37,911 nt of DNA, from the NCBI GenBank assembly GCA_016927185.1, contig JAFGND010000031.1:1-37911 (forward strand). Direction: 5' to 3'. The first letter of the stretch is position 1, and each line of letters opens with the position of its first letter. Shown one piece after another: positions 19,449 to 37,911 of the stretch. The notes under the pieces were generated by a model, which was not told the DNA's origin, did not search any database, and saw only the letters and a program-made list of their open reading frames with translations. The position numbers were made by a program, and so were the translations under genes. Origin of the DNA: Candidatus Coatesbacteria bacterium. GTDB lineage: Bacteria; JAFGND01.

Positions 19449-21680
19449 TTACTTGAGATTCCAGATTAATATTACCCCATCTCTGCTTGCTGAAAAGAGT
19501 CTTTCTTCATCTTCCGTTAAACAAAAGGCATCTATATATGTCGAATGTCCATGCATTGTATAAGATAGTCTTATTTCAGGATTGATTTCGAAAACAGCTA
19601 TATCACCCTTTTTAAAACCTGCAATTATTCTGTTATTCATTGCTTTAAAACAAGTTGCCATTCCATTACAGGATTTGAATTCATGCAAGATTGAACCCGT
19701 ATCAATCCTGTAAATCTTGAAACCATTCTCGGAAGAAACTGCTATGCAACTACTATTTCTGCAGAAAGCGACAGGACTTCTCCCCTTGACAGCTGAAAGA
19801 TTATTCAAATCATCGGTTTTCATTATCTTTATCACATCTTCTTCAGCAGTATATGCAAGCATATGATTGTCACTTGAAAAAATCGCTGAATATGATCCTG
19901 AAGTATTGTTGTCTATCCAATAAGAGTAATTTGCAATTTTTAAATCCTTGATATAGATTTTCTTATCATTAATTGCATCCAGAATATAATTATTCTGTAT
20001 ATTATCCGACATTTGTCCTTCAGTTATTTCTGTAGCAAGAATATAATTTTCATCAGCAGATATTGCTATTACTAAGTTCTGAGAAACCTCCTTCAGGATT
20101 TTTAAAGTTTCAGTATCAATGATCTTGAAAGATCCACTTGCCTCATCAAGTCCAATAGTATTCATCAATATCTTGGAATTTTTCATGATCCTTATGAAAT
20201 TAAAAAAGTTGGCTGAAGGTTCATCAAGAATATGGATTCTATTTATCTTGTCACTTTTCAAATCCCCATATTCAACATAAGTTTTCTCCAGAGTATCAAT
20301 CACTGTAGCGGCAAAATAGCATTTATCATCATGAAATCTTATATCACCATTACATCCATTTTGGTACTTCTTCACTATCTTCCCGGTTTCAGTATCCCAT
20401 AATGTTAAATCCCAGTATTCAGAACCTTCAAGAAAGGAGTGAGATTCTGACGTAACATATTTACCTGAGCTTGATATATTAATATGATTAAATCCACCTA
20501 TATCAGAACCTGATATTTTTTTCAACAAGCGAAAGTCCTGTTTTTCATTGAAATCAGGATTCCAGACAGTAATATCTTCACCAGTCAAGGCAATGAGTTT
20601 GTTATTATCAGTGTATACAAGTTTGCTTATATTTGAGGAAGAGCCCATTAATGTCTTGACTATTTTCCAGTTATCAGTATCCCAGATGTTTATCTTTCCA
20701 AAGCTGCCTGAAGTAGCAAGATACTTATTGTCTTTCGATAAACATATTGCACTCATTGTGCTTCCAAAATAGCCTTCAGAATTTGTATCAAGTTTTTTAT
20801 TGTTTTTGCTGTTCTTCAAATCCCATACATATAATTGATTTGATATAATCCCTTCTGTATTATAAAACATCCCGATTATAAGTTCTTTGTTATCTTCAGT
20901 AAAAGCATAGGATCCTATATCAAATGGAATTCCGTCATTAATTTCCTTCGAAGGGACTATTCTCTTGCCTGATTTTATATTCCATAGAATTACTGAGTAA
21001 TCAATCTCATCAATGCAGACGAGGAATTTACCATCATTAGAAAAAGCAAGTGGTGCAAAACCTCTCAATTTTTTAAGTTGTTTACCAGTTTCAATCTCCA
21101 AGATGATAATAGAAGAATCTTTATTGGTATATGCAAATAACCTACTGTCATTTGAAAAAGCAGTTCCATTATCATTATACCCATAGTTTACGCTATTATA
21201 GCTTAAGATTTCTTTTCCAGACTTTGCTTGAAAAAGCCTTGATCTTGTTGATAAATAATTATTGTCTGGAGAGATTTTAAAGGGATAGAATAATTCATCA
21301 TTCGAATCAGCAGTATTGATCTTGTTAATCTCAGTTAAATCTTTGAATCTCATTAATCTGATAGATCTGTCTGTCGTATCTCTGTATGCCAATATGCTTG
21401 CATCATTAGATATTGTTATCTTCGTAGCATTTGTACCAAACTCCACTTTCCTTATAAGACCAGTTTTGGTATCATAACCGCAATCCATGCAATATCTGAG
21501 ATCCGGATTATTATTACTGGTTGCATCCTTCTTGCAGCAAGAAAACTGGATGCTATCAACTTTCTTGAAATTGCAATTAGGACATCTGGTAGAAGTATCC
21601 TCATTAATATTATTGCACATTGGACAATGCCATGCTGATATTATGTCTATCCATATTAGAACAACAATCAAGAATTTCAT
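19449..21680 (-). CDS. WD40 beta-propeller protein with predicted signal peptide and N-terminal zinc ribbons
   Basis: GGAGG RBS before ATG 21680; signal peptide MKFLIVVLIWIDIISA; WHCPMC..N..CPNC and CMDC; many WD repeats (LATSGSFGKINIWD, GHSTYIDA..LFSASRDGVILIWN). Confidence 0.88.
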   Translation of the reverse strand: MKFLIVVLIWIDIISAWHCPMCNNINEDTSTRCPNCNFKKVDSIQFSCCKKDATSNNNPDLRYCMDCGYDTKTGLIRKVEFGTNATKITISNDASILAYRDTTDRSIRLMRFKDLTEINKINTADSNDELFYPFKISPDNNYLSTRSRLFQAKSGKEILSYNSVNYGYNDNGTAFSNDSRLFAYTNKDSSIIILEIETGKQLKKLRGFAPLAFSNDGKFLVCIDEIDYSVILWNIKSGKRIVPSKEINDGIPFDIGSYAFTEDNKELIIGMFYNTEGIISNQLYVWDLKNSKNNKKLDTNSEGYFGSTMSAICLSKDNKYLATSGSFGKINIWDTDNWKIVKTLMGSSSNISKLVYTDNNKLIALTGEDITVWNPDFNEKQDFRLLKKISGSDIGGFNHINISSSGKYVTSESHSFLEGSEYWDLTLWDTETGKIVKKYQNGCNGDIRFHDDKCYFAATVIDTLEKTYVEYGDLKSDKINRIHILDEPSANFFNFIRIMKNSKILMNTIGLDEASGSFKIIDTETLKILKEVSQNLVIAISADENYILATEITEGQMSDNIQNNYILDAINDKKIYIKDLKIANYSYWIDNNTSGSYSAIFSSDNHMLAYTAEEDVIKIMKTDDLNNLSAVKGRSPVAFCRNSSCIAVSSENGFKIYRIDTGSILHEFKSCNGMATCFKAMNNRIIAGFKKGDIAVFEINPEIRLSYTMHGHSTYIDAFCLTEDEERLFSASRDGVILIWNLK

Positions 21681-21789
21681 AATTCCTCCACTAATAAAGT
21701 CATAGTTCACCTGATTACTATTACGAACCTGCAAATGACAGGATCAGTTAACATGTTTGATTATCAATTCAATGCTATAAAGATACTTT

Positions 21790-24700
21790 CTATTCATCTG
21801 TTTTTTTCCTGATCCTTTCTTTCCATTTTTCAGCATTTTCATGATCTGATAGGAGTTCATAAAGATCTATAATATTTCGTATATTGTAAATCAAGTCAGG
21901 ATGATATCTGACAAAGTTTCTTGTTCTTATTGAATTGCATTTTAGAAGGTATTCCATTGCCTTGTCATATTGTCCCATCTCCTTGAAAATTGTTCCTATG
22001 CATTCATAAGGATAGCTTATATCCGAATGATCCTCAGTCATGATCTTCCTTGCTATTTCGATTGACTTGTTAATCATTTCAATAGCTTCTTTGTATTTTT
22101 TCTGTTTCCTGAATATTTCAGCATAGGCATTGTAAACGCTTACCATATAACTATTATCTTCTCCGTACAATTTACTGTATCTTTCGGAAAACTTGTCTAT
22201 ATATTCCTTTGCCAATTCAAGTTTATCCGCTTCAAGATAGTTCAATCCCATGTTGCATACATTAGTTAATGTGAAATAATGATCATGACCGAATATTTTC
22301 TCACACATATATTCTGCATTCTTCAGTTTTTTCTCTGCTTCTTCATAATTCTTAAGTTTTATGAATACTGTTCCTAGAGTGGCAGTATTCATAACCGTTT
22401 TGGGGTGACTGGCTCCAAATATCTGAAGATATATATTTGAAGATCTCTCTATATACTTGAGCGTCTCTTTGTATTCACCTGTCCTGAAATATGCGATTGC
22501 CAGGTTATGAAGAAAATCTGCATATCTTGGATTAAGTGAATCATCCTTGTAATCCTTAAGAATAATCTCGTAATATCTTATGGTATCGTCTATATTATCA
22601 TTTATTTTATGGAAAACAGCAAAAGTATTGAATATATTATTCCTGATATCTTTGTTTATATCATGAACATCAGTTATTTCAGATAATAACTTGATATATA
22701 CGGCTGCTTCAGTTTTTCTGTTCATTCTAAGGTATGAGAAGCATATTGAATTATATATTTCAGCTATTTCATTGAAATCCGGTGTATTTATGTTTTCATG
22801 GATTTCAAGTGATTTGTGGAAATAATCCAGGCATTTATCGAATTGTCCCAGATCCTTCAGTAGCATTCCATAGTTTTTGTATAGGACTGCTTTTCTGGAC
22901 ATATCTTCACTATCTTCATTTGAACTGATTAATTCTGATATTATGCTTTCTGCAGCATTATATTCTGCCAGTTCTTTATGAAGCTGAAATTGTTTCAATT
23001 TTATACTGTCTATTTCCTCTGTATCACATAGTAAGCTTATCAACTTCTTGTTCTTCTCTATCACCTCTCTGTATCTATATCTGAGCTCATCATATTCACT
23101 TCCCAATCTCAAGTAATGCTTTAGTTTTTCCAGATCCCTGCCTTTCTCTGAATGAATACAAAGCTCATCAAGATATTCATTCATGTTTTCCTTATAAAGG
23201 TTTTCAATGAGATTGAGCACCAATAAATGAAGTGCAGCTCTTCTTTCTGAAAGCTGCATTTCATATGCTACATCCCTTATCAAGGCATGCGTAAAGAAAT
23301 AGCTGACTTCCTCAATATTTATCGCAATCTCTTCAGGTATAATCATTTGTGCTTTTTCAGCAACTTCAAGATTGTAATTGATATCCTTATCTGAAAGAAG
23401 CATTCTTGATAAAAGACCAATAGAGAATTTCTGACCTATTATACTGGCATGTTGAAGCATATCTTTCAGCTGAACACCAAGAGAATCAATTCTTGCGATT
23501 ATCAAGCTATCTATACTGGATGGCAGGTCAAATACAGATTTTGAGAATTCCCATTTATCATCTACAAGTCTTAATGCATTTGATTCCTTGAGATGCTTGA
23601 GCCATTGTTCTATATAAAAGGGATTGCTGGAGGATTTTCTTGAAAGGAAATCTTTTACATGACACGACAGATTGCTGTTTCCAAGGATGAAATATGCAAA
23701 TTGCTCTTCCAGACCACTTTTTAGTTCACATAATTCCATTTCCTTAACGGTGCATTTACCTGTTTTTGTGAAAATAACCTTTGAACCATCATTTCTATAC
23801 CTGCTTGTAACAATAATCATTATCGGAAAACCATCGATTTCCTCTATCAGGTTTTCGATGAATTCCTTACTTGTAGAATCAAGCCATTGACCATCTTCAA
23901 TTTCCATGATAAGAGGCTTGATTTGTGATTGAGCCTTGAATAGTTCCTTCAATCCAGTGAAAAGAATGTCTTTTTTCAATTTTATATTGTCTATTTTAGA
24001 AAAAAGCGAGTCTTCTATTGTTATGCCAAGCTCATTAGCAACAAAAGAGTGAGTCCTCAGGATTTCATCCTTTATATTTCTTGATATTGAATCATTCTCG
24101 ATTATCTCATTCAATTTGAAAATAAATCTGCTTTTATTGCCTTCGTTATCATTCTCCCTCTGGTTGAAAAAATGCATCAGGAAATTCTTTATTGAATCAA
24201 GTGATTTGGAAACAACACCGTCGCAGACGAATTGAAACCAGCAGTGTTTTATGTTATTCTCTTCCAGATGTTCTTTGAGTGAATACACAAGCTTGCTTTT
24301 CCCAATTCCAGGATTGCCATGAATATAGAACACCCCACCTGTTCCTGTGCTGAGTATGGTTTCATTCAGATAATCAAGCAGGTTCTTTATCTCATTCTCT
24401 CTTCCAATTAGAGGAAGGGATGAGAATTTTTTTTGTACAAACTGCTTCATTCCAATATATCTATAAACAGGCAATTTAAGGCTTTTACCCTTGAAAAGTT
24501 TCATAGTTGACAAGGGAATTCGCGCAAAGGAAGATGCTTTTTCAGCTGTTTCTTTGCTGCAATATATCTCGTTTATTTCACCTACAAACGCAAGTCTCGC
24601 TGCCAGATTTACTAGATCTCCAAGTGATGTGTATTCTTTCCTCTTTTTTCCTCCTGCTTCTCCTGTATAAGCCAATCCATAAGTTATACCCATAGTATAG

Positions 24701-25638
24701 AACATATTCAAATCGCTCTTTCTTATTTCATTCCTGAACTTGTTTACAAAGAGGAAAGCCCTTTTGAGATCATCCTCATGACTTTTAGGAAAACCGAAAA
24801 AAATCAGGAATTTTGCACCTTTGTCACCAAAATCAAGCCTGGATAAAAAACCTTCATATTCAGTCAGAACAGAGCTTGTTATTTTATAGAGTTTATCTAT
24901 ATTTTCAAAACTGAGATGCCCCTTGAAAGGCATGAATATAGTAGCTATTTGTCTGAATTCACCACCAGACCAATTCAGTAGCTCTTCAGGGATGAATTGT
25001 CTTAATATTCTCCTGTCAATACTTGATCCCCTGATAATAAAATCCGTCCTTGCAATGCTTTCAATATCAGTAATACCAATATCTTCAGCAAGGCTGAAAG
25101 ATCCACCAGACGTTACATGTTCAAGTTCGGCTGCTTTTTCAATTGCAGATCCCCTGAAGTAATACCCCATATTTTCCTTATTTCCAACTATTCCCCACTC
25201 AATCTCTCCGAAAGCGACCCCAATCTTAACTTCAAGTTTTAGTTCCCCGAATTCAGTTTTCATATTCCCATTCTGTTCAAAGTGGTTCAGTATTTCACGA
25301 CAGCTTGAAACAGAATGCTTTTTTATTAAATCACTGTCTCTTGAATCATCTACAGGAAAAATTGCAGTGCAACTGTCTCCACCAAATGATGAAATGAAGC
25401 CCCTGTGAGTATATATTGCTTCTATCATTGGCTCAAATGATGCCTGAAGGACTTGAGTTAATATTTCACTTCCATGTTTGCCATGATTGAGGAGTTTTTC
25501 TGTTAGGGCAGTGAATCCTGAGATGTCACAGAAAATGACATAAGCCACGAAATTTCCTTCAAACAACTCCTGCTTTAGTTTATCTAATATGAAATCAGGA
25601 ATAAGTTTATTGCATTCAAGATTTAAATCCGTATTCAT
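21790..25638 (-). CDS. Soluble adenylyl cyclase-like protein: two class III cyclase domains + STAND/AAA ATPase + TPR
   Basis: FCDISGFT, FGGD; GDKG, LGDLVNLAARL; IGRENE, GNPGIGKS, IEDGQWLD, NPFYIE, IIARIDSL, FTHALIRDVAY; kinesin-light-chain-like TPRs (FGASHP). Start 25638 (track 25695). Confidence 0.92.
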   Translation of the reverse strand: MNTDLNLECNKLIPDFILDKLKQELFEGNFVAYVIFCDISGFTALTEKLLNHGKHGSEILTQVLQASFEPMIEAIYTHRGFISSFGGDSCTAIFPVDDSRDSDLIKKHSVSSCREILNHFEQNGNMKTEFGELKLEVKIGVAFGEIEWGIVGNKENMGYYFRGSAIEKAAELEHVTSGGSFSLAEDIGITDIESIARTDFIIRGSSIDRRILRQFIPEELLNWSGGEFRQIATIFMPFKGHLSFENIDKLYKITSSVLTEYEGFLSRLDFGDKGAKFLIFFGFPKSHEDDLKRAFLFVNKFRNEIRKSDLNMFYTMGITYGLAYTGEAGGKKRKEYTSLGDLVNLAARLAFVGEINEIYCSKETAEKASSFARIPLSTMKLFKGKSLKLPVYRYIGMKQFVQKKFSSLPLIGRENEIKNLLDYLNETILSTGTGGVFYIHGNPGIGKSKLVYSLKEHLEENNIKHCWFQFVCDGVVSKSLDSIKNFLMHFFNQRENDNEGNKSRFIFKLNEIIENDSISRNIKDEILRTHSFVANELGITIEDSLFSKIDNIKLKKDILFTGLKELFKAQSQIKPLIMEIEDGQWLDSTSKEFIENLIEEIDGFPIMIIVTSRYRNDGSKVIFTKTGKCTVKEMELCELKSGLEEQFAYFILGNSNLSCHVKDFLSRKSSSNPFYIEQWLKHLKESNALRLVDDKWEFSKSVFDLPSSIDSLIIARIDSLGVQLKDMLQHASIIGQKFSIGLLSRMLLSDKDINYNLEVAEKAQMIIPEEIAINIEEVSYFFTHALIRDVAYEMQLSERRAALHLLVLNLIENLYKENMNEYLDELCIHSEKGRDLEKLKHYLRLGSEYDELRYRYREVIEKNKKLISLLCDTEEIDSIKLKQFQLHKELAEYNAAESIISELISSNEDSEDMSRKAVLYKNYGMLLKDLGQFDKCLDYFHKSLEIHENINTPDFNEIAEIYNSICFSYLRMNRKTEAAVYIKLLSEITDVHDINKDIRNNIFNTFAVFHKINDNIDDTIRYYEIILKDYKDDSLNPRYADFLHNLAIAYFRTGEYKETLKYIERSSNIYLQIFGASHPKTVMNTATLGTVFIKLKNYEEAEKKLKNAEYMCEKIFGHDHYFTLTNVCNMGLNYLEADKLELAKEYIDKFSERYSKLYGEDNSYMVSVYNAYAEIFRKQKKYKEAIEMINKSIEIARKIMTEDHSDISYPYECIGTIFKEMGQYDKAMEYLLKCNSIRTRNFVRYHPDLIYNIRNIIDLYELLSDHENAEKWKERIRKKTDE

Positions 25639-25752
25639 GTAGCCTTCCGCATCTACCTGTATCAAAGCTGTCAATGATTTGTCAAGAATTATCAAGTAAT
25701 AAGCAAGTTAATAGTACAATTCTGTCCAATACAAGATTCAATCCATTGCTGC

Positions 25753-31378: not shown

Positions 31379-32164
31379 CTAAAAACCGAAATATTTCCTT
31401 AAACCTTCTGAAATATTCATGAAAGGCTGGGAGAGAAATCCTCCTAAAGCCAGGAATGGTCCTAGAGGGAATTCATCCTTTCTTCCTTTCATTCCTGATA
31501 CAAGAAAGAATATTGCGAATATGCCACTAACAAAAAAAGCAATGAACAAAGCTGTAACCATGTTTTTAACCCCCAAAAAACTGCCAAGAAATGCAGCAAA
31601 TACCAAGTCTCCTCCTCCCATAGCTTCTTTTTTATAGATATATTTACCTACAAGCCCAATCATTCCCATTATAGCAAATCCAGCTGCACAAGCAAGATAG
31701 TAATCCCACCAGGTATTTCTGAACAAAGCCCATAACAAACCTGTGAATATTCCGAATAGACTCAAGCTGAAAGGAAGCATCTGTGTTTCAATATCAATAA
31801 CTGATTGAGAATAAAGAACTGAAACAAATATAAACAATGGGATTAATTCTAAGTTACTGGAAAAATTTTTCAAATACAGGAAATACTGGATTCCAAAAAG
31901 CATTCCTGTCGTTAGTTCTATTACAGGATATCGCAGCGGTATCCTGCAATTACATTTCCTGCATTTCCCTTTAAGTATTATCCAACTCAGTATTGGAATA
32001 TTGTCATAAGCTTTTATTGGATACTTACAAATAGGACAGTGAGATGAAGGAAAGACAATACTTTCTCCCTTTGGAAACCTGCAGATTACAACATTCAGGA
32101 AACTGCCAACACATAAACCCAGAATAATCACCAAAATGCCTGATAAAAGTACTTCTGAACCCAA
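31379..32164 (-). CDS. pilD: Type IV prepilin peptidase / N-methyltransferase
   Basis: GSFLNVVI, SHCPIC, GKCRKC, IDIE, MGGGD, PLGPFL. Confidence 0.95.
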   Translation of the reverse strand: MGSEVLLSGILVIILGLCVGSFLNVVICRFPKGESIVFPSSHCPICKYPIKAYDNIPILSWIILKGKCRKCNCRIPLRYPVIELTTGMLFGIQYFLYLKNFSSNLELIPLFIFVSVLYSQSVIDIETQMLPFSLSLFGIFTGLLWALFRNTWWDYYLACAAGFAIMGMIGLVGKYIYKKEAMGGGDLVFAAFLGSFLGVKNMVTALFIAFFVSGIFAIFFLVSGMKGRKDEFPLGPFLALGGFLSQPFMNISEGLRKYFGF

Positions 32165-32172
32165 TCTATATC

Positions 32173-33327
32173 CTACAGATTAAACGACCAGCTATATGAA
32201 TAAGAAGAGGCTCCAGGTGCTGCTGAGAAACTTAATGATTGAAGGACTCTTCTTATCTCTGATCTCAGCTCAGAAGGCATGTTTCCGCCTGATACATTAA
32301 CATTTGTTACATTACCTGAAGAATCTACTATTATTGAACATGTTACTGTCCCTGACAAAGTTGCACCCCTGTTTACATATCGCTGTATGAGTTGCTGTAT
32401 TGATCCCCTTGTGGTTCTGCTTGCCTTGGCGGATATCTCGCCACCATCTCTCTTAACGACATCCTTTGATGATTTATCATTATTATATTTATACTGGTGG
32501 CTTTGTGCAGAGAGTTTCTCTCTTTTTCTTCCATGTCTGTCTATATAGAACTGAGTTGGAGCATCAGGACTCTTGTCTGCAGTGGAAGCATTGTTATTGC
32601 TTGCTTCCTCGCTATTTTCCTGATCCGAAGGCTGACTGCTGGTTTGATTACCTGAATTATCAACCTGATTAGACTGATTTGAAGAATATTGATTGCCAGT
32701 ATCCTTCTTCATTGCCTTATCAACAACCTTGATAGCCTCTGTTTTTCTTGCGCTTGTCTCAGTTACCTTTCCTTTCCCGAGATCTCCCAGATTTATTCCA
32801 ATGCTTTGTCCGATGTCTCTCCTGAAAATGAAAAGGGCAATTATGCCTGCTGCTATAACTCCAAACAAGGTATATAATTCTGTTGGTTTTTTCTTTACAT
32901 CAAGTCTTTCTTCCTCTTTGTGTATCAATTCGTTAAGTTGCTTTATATGATCCTGTGATACTGCCTTATCCCTTTTAACCATTCTCTTTTTGTGTACCCA
33001 GTCTTCAACAGCAATCAATACATCAAATCTTCTGGTTGGTTCATTCTCCAGTAAAAATTCATCAGCCTGGATTTGAGCTAATTCCTTGTTGGCAATTATT
33101 GGGCGTTCAGCGAACAATCTTTTGAGAAGAAGAAACTCCTCTTTCTGGATTTTCCCGTTTCTCAATGCTTTTTTAAGGGGACTGAGATCTGGTTCGTAAT
33201 TATCCCAGTCATAATATCCAGCAACTTTTACTTCATCTTCAATATCATCAAAAAGACCTTTATGAGCAGATATCTCTTGCTTGCTATCTTCCAGACCTGT
33301 CTGGTTTTCAATCTTTTTTGTTTTCAT
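32173..33327 (-). CDS. Membrane protein with C-terminal TonB/AgmX-PglI-like domain
   Basis: Cytoplasmic N-domain, single TM, S/N/Q-rich linker, SGTVTCSIIVDSSGNVTNV..IRRVLQSLSF. Confidence 0.65.
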   Translation of the reverse strand: MKTKKIENQTGLEDSKQEISAHKGLFDDIEDEVKVAGYYDWDNYEPDLSPLKKALRNGKIQKEEFLLLKRLFAERPIIANKELAQIQADEFLLENEPTRRFDVLIAVEDWVHKKRMVKRDKAVSQDHIKQLNELIHKEEERLDVKKKPTELYTLFGVIAAGIIALFIFRRDIGQSIGINLGDLGKGKVTETSARKTEAIKVVDKAMKKDTGNQYSSNQSNQVDNSGNQTSSQPSDQENSEEASNNNASTADKSPDAPTQFYIDRHGRKREKLSAQSHQYKYNNDKSSKDVVKRDGGEISAKASRTTRGSIQQLIQRYVNRGATLSGTVTCSIIVDSSGNVTNVNVSGGNMPSELRSEIRRVLQSLSFSAAPGASSYSYSWSFNL

Positions 33328-33395: not shown

Positions 33396-34226
33396 TCAGA
33401 AAAAAAGAAATTTATTCCCTTTTTTTTTGCTTTCCCTTGTAAATTGCTTTTCATTAAGATCATAAGATTGTCCAGGTGCTATCACATCAATCCTTGCATT
33501 GGATAGAGAGATTGGTTCTCCATAATCAATCTGATCAACATTAGTATTAATTATGTTAGCACCATCTACAATCATAACTATGCTCGTGCCAACTACCCTG
33601 GCAATATTCTCAGATGCTATTACTAATGCGGTATCTTCTCCTATACCTATTCCTAAAAGGCTGTTATTTATTGCTACTACCTGCAGTAACCTGCCTATTC
33701 TTGCTCTTGCCTCGAAGTGAGTGTCTATCACTGAGTTAGAGATAAATCCAAAACCGGGTGAAACTTTCACATCTCCATAATAAAAGGAATCTTCACTTGC
33801 TCCTTCATGAATCATTGGATTGCTTAGACAAGCAGCTCCAGCTGAAGTTCCTGCTATAATAATCCCTTCAGAAAACCTCTGTTCAAGTTTTTTTATGAAA
33901 CTTGTTCCCCCAAGAATCGTAGTGAGACGTAATTGAGATCCACCAGAAAACAGTACAGCATCAAGACTTGCCAATGCAGCTGAGTATCTGTCCTCATCTG
34001 CATCTTCTGCTCTTCTTATATCAAAATGATAAATCTCCGCTACTCCTATCTGGGAAAATGCACTCCTGTACTTGCCGATAACATCTCTCTCGTGCTCAGT
34101 TGCTGTAGTGATGACTCCTATTTTTGCCTTTGTCCCGCCTGCTTCCGACACTAGCTCGTTGAGAACTATCTTGTCTTTGCTTGTATCTTCTCCTCCACCA
34201 ATAATAAACAAAGTTCCCTTGTTCAT
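33396..34226 (-). CDS. cphB: Cyanophycinase (peptidase S51), intracellular
   Basis: IIGGGED, GGSQLRL, AGTSAGA (Ser), DTHF (His), RIGRL, GIGEDT (Glu); no signal peptide. Confidence 0.93.
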   Translation of the reverse strand: MNKGTLFIIGGGEDTSKDKIVLNELVSEAGGTKAKIGVITTATEHERDVIGKYRSAFSQIGVAEIYHFDIRRAEDADEDRYSAALASLDAVLFSGGSQLRLTTILGGTSFIKKLEQRFSEGIIIAGTSAGAACLSNPMIHEGASEDSFYYGDVKVSPGFGFISNSVIDTHFEARARIGRLLQVVAINNSLLGIGIGEDTALVIASENIARVVGTSIVMIVDGANIINTNVDQIDYGEPISLSNARIDVIAPGQSYDLNEKQFTRESKKKGNKFLFF

Positions 34227-34618
34227 AAGAGTTTCTTGTCTCTTTCTATTTCTTTCACTTTGTTTATCTTGTAATCTAACCCCTTGACTTTATTCTCAAG
34301 AAGCTTGACAGATTCTCTTTCTGAAGATGCCGGAATATAGAAAACCGTTTCTATCTGATAGAAGGAAGATATGTTTTCACAATAGTTTCTGAGTGAGAAA
34401 ATCAGACATTCAGGTTCATTTACTGCCTTGAGATATTCTTCTATCTCTTCCTCTTTCAGGTATTTCTTCAGAAAGTCATGATATAACTTGCAGATATTCT
34501 CTTCAGTAGAGTTTAAACTACTACTACACAGAATCTCTTTTTGCCATTTCAAGTAAATATTTTCGTATTTTTCCTTTTTTTCTGCATCAATCAGCATCCA
34601 TTTATCCTTATTTCTCAA
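34223..34618 (-). CDS. Hypothetical protein inside cyanophycin operon
   Basis: 131-aa ORF overlapping the iadA stop and the cphB start (ATGA). Confidence 0.6.
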   Translation of the reverse strand: MRNKDKWMLIDAEKKEKYENIYLKWQKEILCSSSLNSTEENICKLYHDFLKKYLKEEEIEEYLKAVNEPECLIFSLRNYCENISSFYQIETVFYIPASSERESVKLLENKVKGLDYKINKVKEIERDKKLL

Positions 34619-35789
34619 AAGTTCCTTTCTTGAGGATTATCCCGTCAGCAAGGAGAATGTTCCCCTTAGATATAATATAATTGATATTCAAATCCTTGTC
34701 AAGCAATACAATATCTGCATCATAACCTTCCTTGAGGTAGCCTTTTCTTTTAAGCTTGTAAATATCTGCCACATTAGCGGTTACAGGCAATATTGCATCC
34801 TGAAGATTAATCTCTTCATCAAGAACAGCTTCACGCATTTCCCTGAAAATCGAGAACATATCTCCCACTTTCAGGCTTATAAGGTTGCCGTTTATATCGA
34901 AATCAGGCAGGCTACCTCCTCCATCCGAGCTGATTGTTATTTTCCTTATATCCACTCCTGATAAAATCAACTCTTTCAAAGCTTTTGAAGGTTTTGTTTC
35001 ATACTGGGGATAATATGGATAGCTGCTTGCCGTGATATCCAGATATCCTCCTTTTTTACCATATTCCTTTGCCTGTTCGAATATGTCAGAGTTCCTGTTT
35101 ATATGTGTCGGCAGGAACTGGGTAATTGGCAAGGTAGAGCAACCGATCACATCATAAACCGGCTGGAAGTGATTTTTTCCTTCAGGCATGTCACCCATAT
35201 GAAGGTTTACTATTCCTGCCTTTCCGGCTAACATTCCGGCAACTCTTGCGTGTTCAGCCAGTCTGAGAAGTTCTTTTGTGGAAGGCCAGCTGGATCTGTG
35301 GTCGCTTACAGCAATTTCTCCAACACCAATGCACTCCTTGATAAGGCAAATATCACGCTCTATGCTTCCTGTAAGAGTTATTGGAGGATACTGGTAAGCA
35401 CCAGTCAGAATCCATGCTGAAACTCCTTCTTCCTTCAGGGATTTAGCCTTCATCAGGACGCTCTCGACATTCCTGGTAATCCCGTCAGTGCCCAGGCAGC
35501 CAACAACCCCTGTTATTCCGCCAGATAACATATCTGAAAGCTGGATTTCAGGAGTTCTTGTTTTTGGTCCGCCTTCGCCTCCAGCACCTGCAATATGAAC
35601 ATGACAGTCTATCAAGCCAGGAATTGCCTGAAATTTGGAGCAGTTTATTACAACACACTCAAGTCCTTTTGGAATTTCAATATTATCAGAAATGCTTAAA
35701 ATCCTGCTTGATCCAAGAAGTATATCCTTTTTCCCAATGAATTCTGGAGAATATACTTCAGTTCCTTTCAGTAGCGTAAGACTGCTCAT
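34608..35789 (-). CDS. iadA: Isoaspartyl dipeptidase (beta-aspartyl peptidase, amidohydrolase family)
   Basis: DCHVHIAGAGGEGG, RTPE, LGTDGITR, TGAY, SDHRSS, HMGD, PTHINR, SSDGGGSLP; AGGAG RBS. Confidence 0.95.
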   Translation of the reverse strand: MSSLTLLKGTEVYSPEFIGKKDILLGSSRILSISDNIEIPKGLECVVINCSKFQAIPGLIDCHVHIAGAGGEGGPKTRTPEIQLSDMLSGGITGVVGCLGTDGITRNVESVLMKAKSLKEEGVSAWILTGAYQYPPITLTGSIERDICLIKECIGVGEIAVSDHRSSWPSTKELLRLAEHARVAGMLAGKAGIVNLHMGDMPEGKNHFQPVYDVIGCSTLPITQFLPTHINRNSDIFEQAKEYGKKGGYLDITASSYPYYPQYETKPSKALKELILSGVDIRKITISSDGGGSLPDFDINGNLISLKVGDMFSIFREMREAVLDEEINLQDAILPVTANVADIYKLKRKGYLKEGYDADIVLLDKDLNINYIISKGNILLADGIILKKGTFEK

Positions 35790-35798
35790 TTCAATCTC

Positions 35799-37676
35799 CT
35801 ATTGTCTTGGTAAATACTTTTTCACTAAAGCAGCAATCTTGTTTTCCAGGTCTTCCTCATTTTCCCATGCCTGCTTTTTCAATTCCTTGCCATTTCTAGT
35901 GACAACTATTTCCTTGTTTCTTGGTCCTGTTTCAATCAAGACGCCTTCAGGGACAAGATCTCTTGTCAGAATCTCTTCAGTATTGTCAGGATCATCAAGA
36001 ATGACTATATTAGATCCCTTGAAAAACAATCCATAATCCAGTATGGAAGAGCTAGTTGCTTCAAAAATTGCGAAATCGAGTTTCGGGTTTCTTAGTGCAT
36101 TCTTGATATTCTTGCAGTAATCTTCATTCTTGCAAAGGAATTCACTATTCACAAAAAGACCTTCTTCCTGTGTATGGCAGGCAACTTCTTCATAACCTGC
36201 ATCTGATGCAATCTTGCTTAGTTTTTCAGCAAGATTCTTGCTTAATCTGTTCGCTGCGATTATGGGAATTTTACCTGACGGAGTATCTTCAAACCAGTGA
36301 TCTATTATTTTTGAAGGAACATTTACGCTTCCTCCAATAGCTGGTGCCAGATGCATGAATACTCCAGGTCCTGCATTGATTTCTATTATGGCAGTTGGGC
36401 TTTCAGTCCACGGTTTTGAAATATCTTCTGCAAGCAAATCAATACCAAGGCATGTCACGCATAAATACTTTCCAATGTCTTCAGCCAGTTTTACATTCGT
36501 TGGATGGATTTTGTCAGTGACATTTATGCTTACTCCACCAGCAGAAATATTTGCAACTCTTCTTAAAGTTATTCTCTCACCTTCCTTGGGGGTGCTATTC
36601 AAGTCAAGATCCTGGGCTGCAATGAAGTTAATCAAGTCATTGTCTACCTTTATCTTGCAAAGAGGAGACCTTGCATTATCAAGTCTTTCAATTGTATCAT
36701 TTTCTATCTCTATGAGCTCTCCAATTGTATGTCTTCCGTCTCCCTCAACATATGCAGGGACTCTTTCCAGTGCTGCAACGAATTTTCCTCCAACAGTCAG
36801 CAGTCTATGATCCGTGCCATTTACCTGCTTCTCGATAAGTGCTCCGTCCCATTCCTTGCCTTCAGGAACCTGGCTTGCAAGAAGATCGAAAGCATTCCTG
36901 ACTTCGGATGCGCTCATCAGGTTAGTATGAACACCCTGGCCTTTGTGTCCGGCAAGTGGCTTGACAACAACAGGATAGCCTAGCTGTTCAGCCTGTTCAA
37001 CTACTTCCTCTGCATCAAAGCAAAGCTGACCTTTCGGGCTTGGAAAATTGAAGTCAAACAGGAAGTCTTTAACCATATCCTTGTTCATTGTAAATTCAGT
37101 ATCTTTTATGCTGTCAGTATGGATAGTTGTTGATCTGCCTCTTCTCTGATACTTGCCATAGCCCATCTGGAAAACATTTTCATTATAGATATAGAATAAT
37201 GGAATATTCTGAAGATATGCTGCTTCCAGAATATGATATAATGTAGGTCCTCCAAACAAGGTTCTGTCAAAGTCTTTGGCAAGTTTCTCGAATTTCTTTT
37301 CAAATGGAAATTCCACTCTATCCATGATATCATGAAGCCAATCTACAGCAAAATATATTGCATCTTCGGTAATCTTGTCATCAAGATACTGTATGGCTAT
37401 TGTCCAGTAACCCTCTCTTTCAATAACATTATATTTTTTTGAAAACAGGTTCATATCAAGTAGCTGGATATGAATAATAGTTTCTGCAAGCAAAGTTGGG
37501 ATATCATTAATAGTCTTTTCCTTGATTGCAGGAAATTTTTTTGAAATCTCGACAAGGAAGTGATCTATGTCTGGAATCTTGTCTGACATGTCCAGATCAA
37601 ATACTACAGCCTGTTCATCTAGATAATAATTCGCTCCTGAATATGTCTTGAAGCGGCTTAATTTAAAATCTTTCAT
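35799..37676 (-). CDS. cphA2: CphA2-type cyanophycin synthetase (beta-Asp-Arg polymerase; N + ATP-grasp domains, vestigial Mur domain)
   Basis: 625 aa; GANYYL, FGGPTLY, QMGYGKYQ, KPLAGHKGQGV, DHRLL, GDG..TIGELI, ANISAGG, EINAGPG; KIPIIAANR where CphA1 has the RIPIxxVTGTNGKTT P-loop; GGAGGT RBS. Confidence 0.85.
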   Translation of the reverse strand: MKDFKLSRFKTYSGANYYLDEQAVVFDLDMSDKIPDIDHFLVEISKKFPAIKEKTINDIPTLLAETIIHIQLLDMNLFSKKYNVIEREGYWTIAIQYLDDKITEDAIYFAVDWLHDIMDRVEFPFEKKFEKLAKDFDRTLFGGPTLYHILEAAYLQNIPLFYIYNENVFQMGYGKYQRRGRSTTIHTDSIKDTEFTMNKDMVKDFLFDFNFPSPKGQLCFDAEEVVEQAEQLGYPVVVKPLAGHKGQGVHTNLMSASEVRNAFDLLASQVPEGKEWDGALIEKQVNGTDHRLLTVGGKFVAALERVPAYVEGDGRHTIGELIEIENDTIERLDNARSPLCKIKVDNDLINFIAAQDLDLNSTPKEGERITLRRVANISAGGVSINVTDKIHPTNVKLAEDIGKYLCVTCLGIDLLAEDISKPWTESPTAIIEINAGPGVFMHLAPAIGGSVNVPSKIIDHWFEDTPSGKIPIIAANRLSKNLAEKLSKIASDAGYEEVACHTQEEGLFVNSEFLCKNEDYCKNIKNALRNPKLDFAIFEATSSSILDYGLFFKGSNIVILDDPDNTEEILTRDLVPEGVLIETGPRNKEIVVTRNGKELKKQAWENEEDLENKIAALVKKYLPRQ

Positions 37677-37911
37677 TGTTACCTCCGCTGGTAAATAGTG
37701 TGTTGAATAAAGTTGTATACTTTGCCTTCAATTAATGAAGTTCATTTCATGTCAAGCTTAATGCAGTAGTAGTTGAATTGCCAGTTAATTGTATCACTCC
37801 TTTCAGGCTTTTTTATTTTCAATGCACTATAGAAAAACATGCAATAAAATTTCCTTTCAAATCTGAAATTATTCCATTAAAAAAGTTTCACCTATAATAT
37901 AAGGACAAAAC

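Follow-up and report, generated by a model that had tools for sequence, protein, structure and literature searches.

The window analysed here is the whole of contig C62, a stretch of 37,911 bp (GC content 34.7%) from the 2.99-Mb binned genome of a Candidatus Coatesbacteria bacterium, which comprises 109 contigs and is estimated to be 93% complete. Four consecutive open reading frames (ORFs) on its minus strand, in the order cphA2-iadA-small gene-cphB, occupy positions 33396 to 37676. The first-pass annotation of this DNA had named cphA2, iadA and cphB and described four close-packed genes with a 9-nt first gap; profile and structure-relative matches bear out the three names, and the ORF list agrees with the packing. 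We consider it likely that the operon forms the branch that mobilises and recycles polymer in an ordinary cyanophycin system based on CphA1, and that the host, whose genome yielded no nifH, is not a phototroph. This reading is built on the gene identities, the domain architecture, the conserved residues, a cphA1 gene in the same genome and the synteny seen elsewhere; from these we infer the enzyme activities, the co-transcription and a buffering role.

The cphA2 gene (35799 to 37676) encodes 625 aa; the hydrolytic motif is missing from its N domain, its ATP-grasp G domain is intact, and its M domain is cut short and has no P-loop. After a 9-nt gap follows iadA (34608 to 35789, 393 aa), an isoaspartyl (beta-aspartyl) dipeptidase gene of Pfam family Amidohydro_1, whose product matches the TIGR01975 equivalog over its full length (1-389 of 389) with 492 bits against a cut-off of 331. 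The small conserved gene (34223 to 34597) encodes 124 aa from an ATG at 34597, or 131 aa from a TTG at 34618; the ATG is preceded by AAGGA, and the public gene call starts the protein there as well (P0121, 124 aa). The last gene, cphB (33396 to 34226, 276 aa), encodes an intracellular cyanophycinase of peptidase family S51. The stop of the small gene and the start of cphB overlap by 4 nt, so one of the two overlaps noted in the first pass stands; the other, between iadA and the small gene, amounts to 11 nt for the TTG start only and turns into a 10-nt gap with the ATG.

CphB scored 241 bits against the TIGR02069 equivalog (cut-off 127), and its solved relatives are 7uqv, 3en0 and 7uqw. S128 (in GTSAGA), H170 and E197, which from the structural literature on CphB we take to be the Ser-His-Glu catalytic triad, are invariant across 18 CphB sequences, as is Q98. 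Because the profile alignment begins at residue 6, the protein has no leader or signal peptide. It is also the sole cyanophycinase match in the genome in the TIGR02069 search, and a secreted cyanophycinase (cphE) was rejected on the ground that this one match is the leaderless cphB.

CphA2 identity and relatives outside cyanobacteria

CphA2 is described in the literature as having three domains, N, G and M, in about 630 aa; the M domain is truncated, without Mlid, and has lost the ATP P-loop (GTNGKT). CphA2 also lacks Cx19HxxEH, the hydrolytic, primer-generating motif of the CphA1 N domain (PMC9262961). The window protein agrees with CphA2 in length, truncated M domain, lost P-loop, intact G domain, missing Cx19HxxEH and closer similarity to CphA2. 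On the cyanophycin synthetase profile it covers only positions 2-574 of 871. Of the solved structures it is nearest to 8fxh (E 3e-136, 458 bits), to which it aligns over residues 4-611, and 7ta5 (E 8e-136, 457 bits), while CphA1 structures reach at most 236 bits (E about 1e-68). Across alignment A1, no variation is seen in the ATP-grasp motifs (K239, G243-G248, E432 and N434). The M-domain P-loop is gone from the CphA2-like rows, with IAANRLSKN in the window protein as against GTNGKTT in CphA1 representatives, and the region of the Cx19HxxEH motif is deleted in all displayed CphA2-like rows and present in the CphA1 rows. A quick maximum-likelihood tree (LG+G4) of 51 rows separated 30 CphA2-like rows from 21 CphA1 rows, with SH-aLRT support of 100 on both sides. 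The CphA2-like rows included two cyanobacterial-type representatives picked by bit score to the solved structures (P0132 with 900 and P0131 with 635 bits to 8fxh); this pair lies near the base of the CphA2 clade, and the order of the deep branches lacks strong support. Cyanobacterial CphA2 was also sought on plasmids for the tree, and this search returned only CphA1 and GshAB matches. Judged by its sequence, the window enzyme is a true CphA2 orthologue.

CphA2 of Anabaena/Nostoc was reportedly treated by Klemke et al. in 2016. Compared with the solved cyanobacterial enzymes of Stanieria sp. NIES-3757 (8fxh/8fxi) and Gloeothece citriformis (7ta5), the window protein shares the N-G-truncated-M layout (625 aa against 629-642), can be aligned with both from one end to the other, sits in the CphA2 clade of the tree, away from CphA1, and has in common with them the substrate-site residues, the lost M-domain P-loop and the absence of Cx19HxxEH. 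Its identity to the Stanieria-cluster representative P0132 is only 37%. Unlike for cyanobacterial CphA2, the operon of its gene also contains iadA, cphB and a further small gene, and the host is a non-cyanobacterium in which neither a reaction-centre gene nor nifH was found. It also departs from the Stanieria enzyme at H208 (Ile), D212 (Glu) and the hexamer-interface positions Q416 and R528 (E399 and S511 in the window protein).

Residue conservation was read from an alignment in which 87 non-cyanobacterial CphA2-like rows stood beside 2 rows of the cyanobacterial type and 34 of CphA1, with Stanieria numbers carried over by pairwise alignment to 8fxh and mutagenesis data taken from the Stanieria CphA2 paper. 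According to that paper, T163, T202, R308, D362, R389, N393 and S395 matter by mutagenesis. The polymer-binding T163, T202 and R308 are kept in the window protein as T145, T184 and R291, and so are all four residues of the proposed beta-Asp-Arg site, D362, R389, N393 and S395, as D345, R372, N376 and S378. All seven are invariant or nearly so in the 87 rows and in both cyanobacterial-type rows; for the beta-Asp-Arg site the counts are 86/87 (D), 86/87 (R), 87/87 (N) and 87/87 (S), and 2/2 each in the cyanobacterial-type rows. The 34 CphA1 rows vary at these columns, and at R389 they carry K in 18 cases, E in 6, R in 5 and Q in 2.

The substitutions at H208 and D212, two positions that contact cyanophycin, run through the non-cyanobacterial rows (Ile in 85/87 and Glu in 87/87, respectively), and they could mean that these enzymes polymerise another beta-aspartyl dipeptide, such as beta-Asp-Lys or beta-Asp-Orn, or make another product; the promiscuity of IadA enzymes, as stated by Sharon et al. 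(PMC10206079), would fit such a use. However, the four proposed beta-Asp-Arg residues and the other tested polymer-binding residues are conserved, Glu at D212 retains an acidic charge for pairing with the guanidinium, CphA1 likewise has Ile at the H208 position according to the Stanieria paper, and a bona fide cyanophycinase is encoded in the same cluster. We regard a different dipeptide as very improbable, and its mention as an alternative in the first-pass annotation gained no support here.

CphA2 has been described in papers as occurring only in cyanobacteria (PMC9974463), and the sole hint in print that we found of a CphA2-like enzyme outside them is a genome note on Bacillus horikoshii (PMC5532821). 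A word-indexed protein search with the window CphA2 returned 828 proteins at E <= 1e-20, the best 120 of which are 47-73% identical and 620-690 aa long and include proteins named for Bacteroidales, Cloacimonadota, Acidobacteriota, Negativicutes and similar groups. Scanning one genome per species with two peptide patterns confirmed relatives, at least 147 of them, in uncultured bacteria. The best 80 of these all come from metagenome-assembled genomes, and none of the 80 is labelled cyanobacterial; the labels are Bacteroidota, Planctomycetota, Cloacimonadota, Acidobacteriota, Thermodesulfobacteriota, Bacillota, Spirochaetota, Sumerlaeota, Muiribacteriota, Chlorobiota or simply "uncultured bacterium."

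The neighbour census was made on these best 80 loci, many of which are cut by contig ends, so that every class is a lower bound. At least one of cphB, iadA and cphA1 adjoins cphA2 in 46 of the 80, and cphA1 does so in 20. Multi-gene combinations were cphA1+cphB+iadA (13 loci), cphB+iadA (8), cphA1+iadA (3), cphA1+cphB (3) and cphA1+cphB+small gene (1), with iadA only in 13, cphB only in 5 and none of these neighbours in 34. All but two of the neighbourless loci (32/34) hold a longer, solitary Bacteroidota paralogue of 660-689 aa. The synteny survey suggested at the first pass thus finds cphA2 often clustered with cphB and iadA and sometimes with cphA1. One counterpart, L094, encodes a CphA2 73% identical to that of the window in the identical order cphA2-iadA-small gene-cphB. 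In 41 of 45 CphA2-bearing genomes a CphA1-type gene was present; two had a contig-edge fragment only and two had none. The window arrangement is one variant of a widespread cassette, and a bona fide CphA2 module exists outside cyanobacteria, contrary to the statements in the literature.

The survey also yielded several observations on these gene families. Many CphA2-bearing genomes carry a short CphA1-type gene of about 725-766 codons that ends at profile positions 700-726 of 862 and, in contrast to full-length CphA1, is without the C-terminal Mlid part. It is the only CphA1-type match in at least 13 of 40 genomes (G048, G049, G057, G061, G064, G066, G068-G071, G073, G077 and G079), it stands beside cphA2-iadA in L024, L033, L038, L040, L058, L064 and L080, and in some cases its P-loop is degenerate (GTDGATL in L038, GYSGCSL in L058). 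The second CphA2-like paralogue of Bacteroidota (660-689 aa) has an N-terminal extension of about 40 aa, and its 32 loci (L015-L017, L019-L022, L025, L027, L030, L036, L042, L043, L045, L048-L050, L055, L063, L065, L066, L069, L076-L079, L082-L084, L086, L087 and L090) show no cyanophycin gene within at most 10 kb per side, many of the contigs being shorter than that; several Bacteroidota genomes hold both this long solitary form and a clustered form of about 630 aa. Two adjacent full-length CphA1 paralogues, with P-loops GTLGKT and GTNGKTT, lie beside cphA2-iadA in L029, L047 and L067, with cphB following in the first two and standing upstream of cphA2 in L067. Finally, the metagenome contig L095 (4986-10927) joins an M20-family peptidase, in the usual place of iadA, to a cyanophycinase, a CphA2-like gene (43% identical) and a glutamine-synthetase-like gene.

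A solitary cphA1 and the source of the dipeptide

The first-pass annotation saw no cphA1 in the window, and indeed there is none on contig C62. A TIGR02068 search of the genome, however, found one at C106:7310-9895, encoding 888 aa. The protein covers profile positions 2-850 of 862 with 744 bits, matches 7lg5 (Synechocystis CphA1) at E 5e-145, and has N, G and M domains with the Mlid region covered, a P-loop (GTSGKTS) and a C-x19-HIIEH motif. The gene is solitary, lying between a histidine-kinase gene and a glycosyltransferase gene, and it would be at least 7.5 kb from cphA2 even if C62 and C106 were to abut. In the tree, the window CphA2 pairs with the CphA2 of the Spirochaetia-labelled locus L013 (support 99) and the genome's own CphA1 with the CphA1 of L013 (support 100); these matching pairings suggest that cphA2 and cphA1 belong to one lineage. 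CphA2 accompanies CphA1 here as it does in cyanobacteria, where it occurs in genomes with CphA1 (PMC9974463). A storage system based on CphA2 alone, as first proposed, was rejected on the presence of this full-length cphA1 in the same genome, a result that the first pass had itself named as one that would refute it; the window is neither a CphA2-only nor a new stand-alone storage system.

Neither a photosynthetic reaction-centre gene nor nifH was found in genome-wide searches. None of 40 other genomes sampled as relatives is closer to the host than "same domain," and no phylum-level relative is apparent among them. A cyanobacterial origin of the contig was rejected, given the lack of a reaction-centre gene and of any relative beyond "same domain," and on the same grounds the earlier placing of this CphA2 outside cyanobacteria holds.

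The first pass had favoured a cycle in which foreign dipeptide is taken up and restored to polymer. In this explanation, beta-Asp-Arg or cyanophycin fragments made by others would be imported, stored by CphA2 and mobilised by CphB and IadA, independently of CphA1. An operon that holds all three dipeptide-handling enzymes and no cphA1 would suit it, and the window DNA is present in a sediment metagenome, probably the one it comes from, and in part in metagenomes of biogas fermenters, settings that could supply foreign cyanophycin. Scavenging loci are also known: in strain L21-Spi-D4 (Ben Hania et al., cited in PMC10206079), for example, cyanophycinase and iadA stand together as in the window, and PMC10206079 describes such loci with transporters and in genomes without cphA1. 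Those two marks of a scavenging locus, an importer and a genome without cphA1, are not found with the window operon, which unlike such loci holds a polymerase. No transporter gene lies in or beside it, the nearest ABC genes being of the ABC-2 type and on the opposite strand. PTR2 (PF00854) and SBP_bac_5 (PF00496, Opp/Dpp-type importer) were not found in the 93%-complete genome, while named control genomes gave matches. Moreover, the only cyanophycinase is not exported, and CphA2 needs a cyanophycin primer, which the resident CphA1 would supply. The uptake cycle did not survive these results, and we think it improbable that the operon works in this way.

Apart from cyanobacteria, the nearest comparison for the recycling branch that we favour is the set of cphA1-cyanophycinase-iadA/iaaA clusters of non-cyanobacteria (Sharon et al. 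2023, PMC10206079). To judge from the available text of that survey, those clusters share with the window a cytoplasmic cyanophycinase grouped with IadA, complete degradation to Asp and Arg, and a genome with CphA1; in the window, the clustered synthetase is instead CphA2, and cphA1 stands alone. The same text names cphA1, cyanophycinase, iadA and iaaA as survey queries and lists no CphA2 query.

The small protein encoded upstream of cphB

The small protein had no match in Pfam or NCBIfam, a single-sequence search returned only itself, and an ESM Atlas search gave no usable match. A profile search of 5.8 billion proteins brought the family to 6 members, and among 83 related loci the profile detected the small gene in L013 only. 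Altogether, the gene lies directly upstream of cphB in three genomes, those of the window, L013 and L094, whose CphA2 proteins are 56-73% identical to that of the window. The order in L013 is cphA2-small gene-cphB-cphA1, and its small protein is 28% identical (E 1e-13); the L094 protein is 35% identical, and its gene overlaps cphB by 4 nt just as in the window. From the sequences, the gene appears to be fast-evolving yet retained.

An initial AF2 model built on 2 rows was of low quality (pLDDT 72.9), and Foldseek with it found nothing in the PDB below E 1.5. The model from 7 rows is helical (pLDDT 83.8); its best match in a PDB structure search was a helical core domain at Z 6.5, under the level that is meaningful for helical bundles. 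When CphB (18-row alignment) and the small protein (2-row alignment) were predicted together, the complex scored 0.79 (runs 0.79, 0.85 and 0.79), while all three controls gave 0.00 (best of 3, 0.00). As a guide that is rough only, since our own alignments were used, a score of 0.79 is reached by 58 of 80 solved complexes and by 2 of 110 mismatched pairs. Between runs, at least 96% of the contacts agree, with partner pLDDT of at least 82. The predicted contacts on CphB (97, 99-108, 133-142, 150-164 and 183-190) flank the invariant S128, H170, E197 and Q98 without including them.

It seems from these models that the small protein probably binds CphB as a regulator or adaptor, and a rare accessory protein predicted to bind cyanophycinase would be new. 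We know of no protein regulator of cyanophycinase. The conservation pattern speaks less clearly for the predicted contact: when the window and L013 proteins are compared, 34 of all 124 positions are invariant but only 5 of the 28 in the predicted interface, and the stretch that the family conserves best (residues 59-111) lies mostly outside the interface. The four genes might thus be mere neighbours and the complex score a modelling artefact, for example a docking onto the oligomer surface of CphB. The lack of enrichment of conserved residues, the partner alignment of only 2 rows and the failure to find any known fold or family would all be expected if so; the placement directly upstream of cphB in three genomes, the 4-nt overlap in two of them and the blank controls would not. 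We hold this explanation to be possible, though the less probable one.

Operon limits and place in cyanophycin turnover

Upstream of cphA2, a non-coding region (37677 to 37911, minus strand) reaches the contig end. It contains no ORF of 60 aa or more, a Shine-Dalgarno GGAGG at 37686-37682, 5 nt ahead of the cphA2 ATG, and a perfect TTGACA at 37755-37750. The earlier description of these 235 nt as intergenic with a -35 element of their own is right as far as the hexamer goes, but no matching -10 hexamer lies 16-18 nt downstream of it, and a sigma-70 consensus scan of the minus strand found no promoter-like site, the number of matches equalling that in shuffled sequence. No sigma-54 GG-N10-GC spacing was seen by eye in this region, and no terminator was found after cphB on the minus strand.

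Downstream, a 384-aa ORF (32173-33327, minus strand) starts 68 nt after cphB behind a strong Shine-Dalgarno sequence and encodes a TonB/AgmX-type C-terminal domain with a long Q/S/N-rich linker; 8 nt after it follows a prepilin peptidase gene (31379-32164, minus strand). As no terminator separates cphB from these two genes, their co-transcription with the operon is possible. Further away lie genes for a 1301-aa protein (21790-25695, minus strand), in which a nucleotide-cyclase-like region and an AAA_16 (STAND-type) ATPase are joined to many TPR repeats, and for the 761-aa WD40 beta-propeller protein that follows it (19449-21734, minus strand). The operon has a GC fraction of 0.392, while the remainder of the window has 0.342, its 24 other ORFs ranging from 0.321 to 0.389; the genome's own cphA1 has 0.402 and the small gene 0.323. 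The higher values of the cyanophycin genes could reflect horizontal acquisition or amino-acid constraints.

According to the above analysis, the lone CphA1 encoded on C106 would make polymer from Asp, Arg and ATP, its own N-domain motif generating the primer. Cytoplasmic CphB would release beta-Asp-Arg from the polymer, and IadA would split it into Asp and Arg. In the Stanieria paper, CphA2 requires a cyanophycin primer and extends it through a single ATP-grasp site; in the window organism, CphA2 would by this means return surplus dipeptide to polymer ends. Acting together, CphB, IadA and CphA2 would balance what is released against what is stored and hold the dipeptide pool low, and by tuning CphB the small protein may keep degradation and re-polymerisation from simply cancelling out.

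Several points weigh against the recycling branch as we describe it. CphB, IadA and CphA2 made from one transcript look like a futile cycle unless they are regulated, and neither a promoter nor a terminator was found for the operon. The cphA1 gene lies on another contig of a binned, 93%-complete genome, and its product falls under the NCBIfam cut-offs (744 bits against 850 for TIGR02068 and 750 against 877 for NF010623); this score marks it as a divergent CphA1 whose activity is presumed from sequence, and the best CphA1-type match is also below the cut-off in 26 of 40 other CphA2-bearing genomes. To these are added the changes at H208 and D212 and the conservation pattern of the small protein, both described above. 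A bolder idea, which we put forward only tentatively, is that re-polymerisation by CphA2 belongs to a module, cphB-cphA2-iadA, which has been passed widely among uncultured bacteria from many phyla, as a rule together with a CphA1 that co-evolves with it, and which works independently of photosynthesis and nitrogen fixation; in the lineage of the window, this module would have gained a previously unknown small protein that binds cyanophycinase and gates degradation against rebuilding.

Uncultured bacteria from many phyla have the same type of enzyme, and almost all of the genomes concerned also hold a CphA1-type gene. Cyanophycin turnover with an ATP-saving recycling step therefore appears to be a general bacterial strategy, not tied to heterocysts or to day/night nitrogen fixation. 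These relatives offer a much larger pool of single-active-site polymerases for making modified cyanophycins, and the small protein is a concrete candidate for a protein regulator of cyanophycinase.

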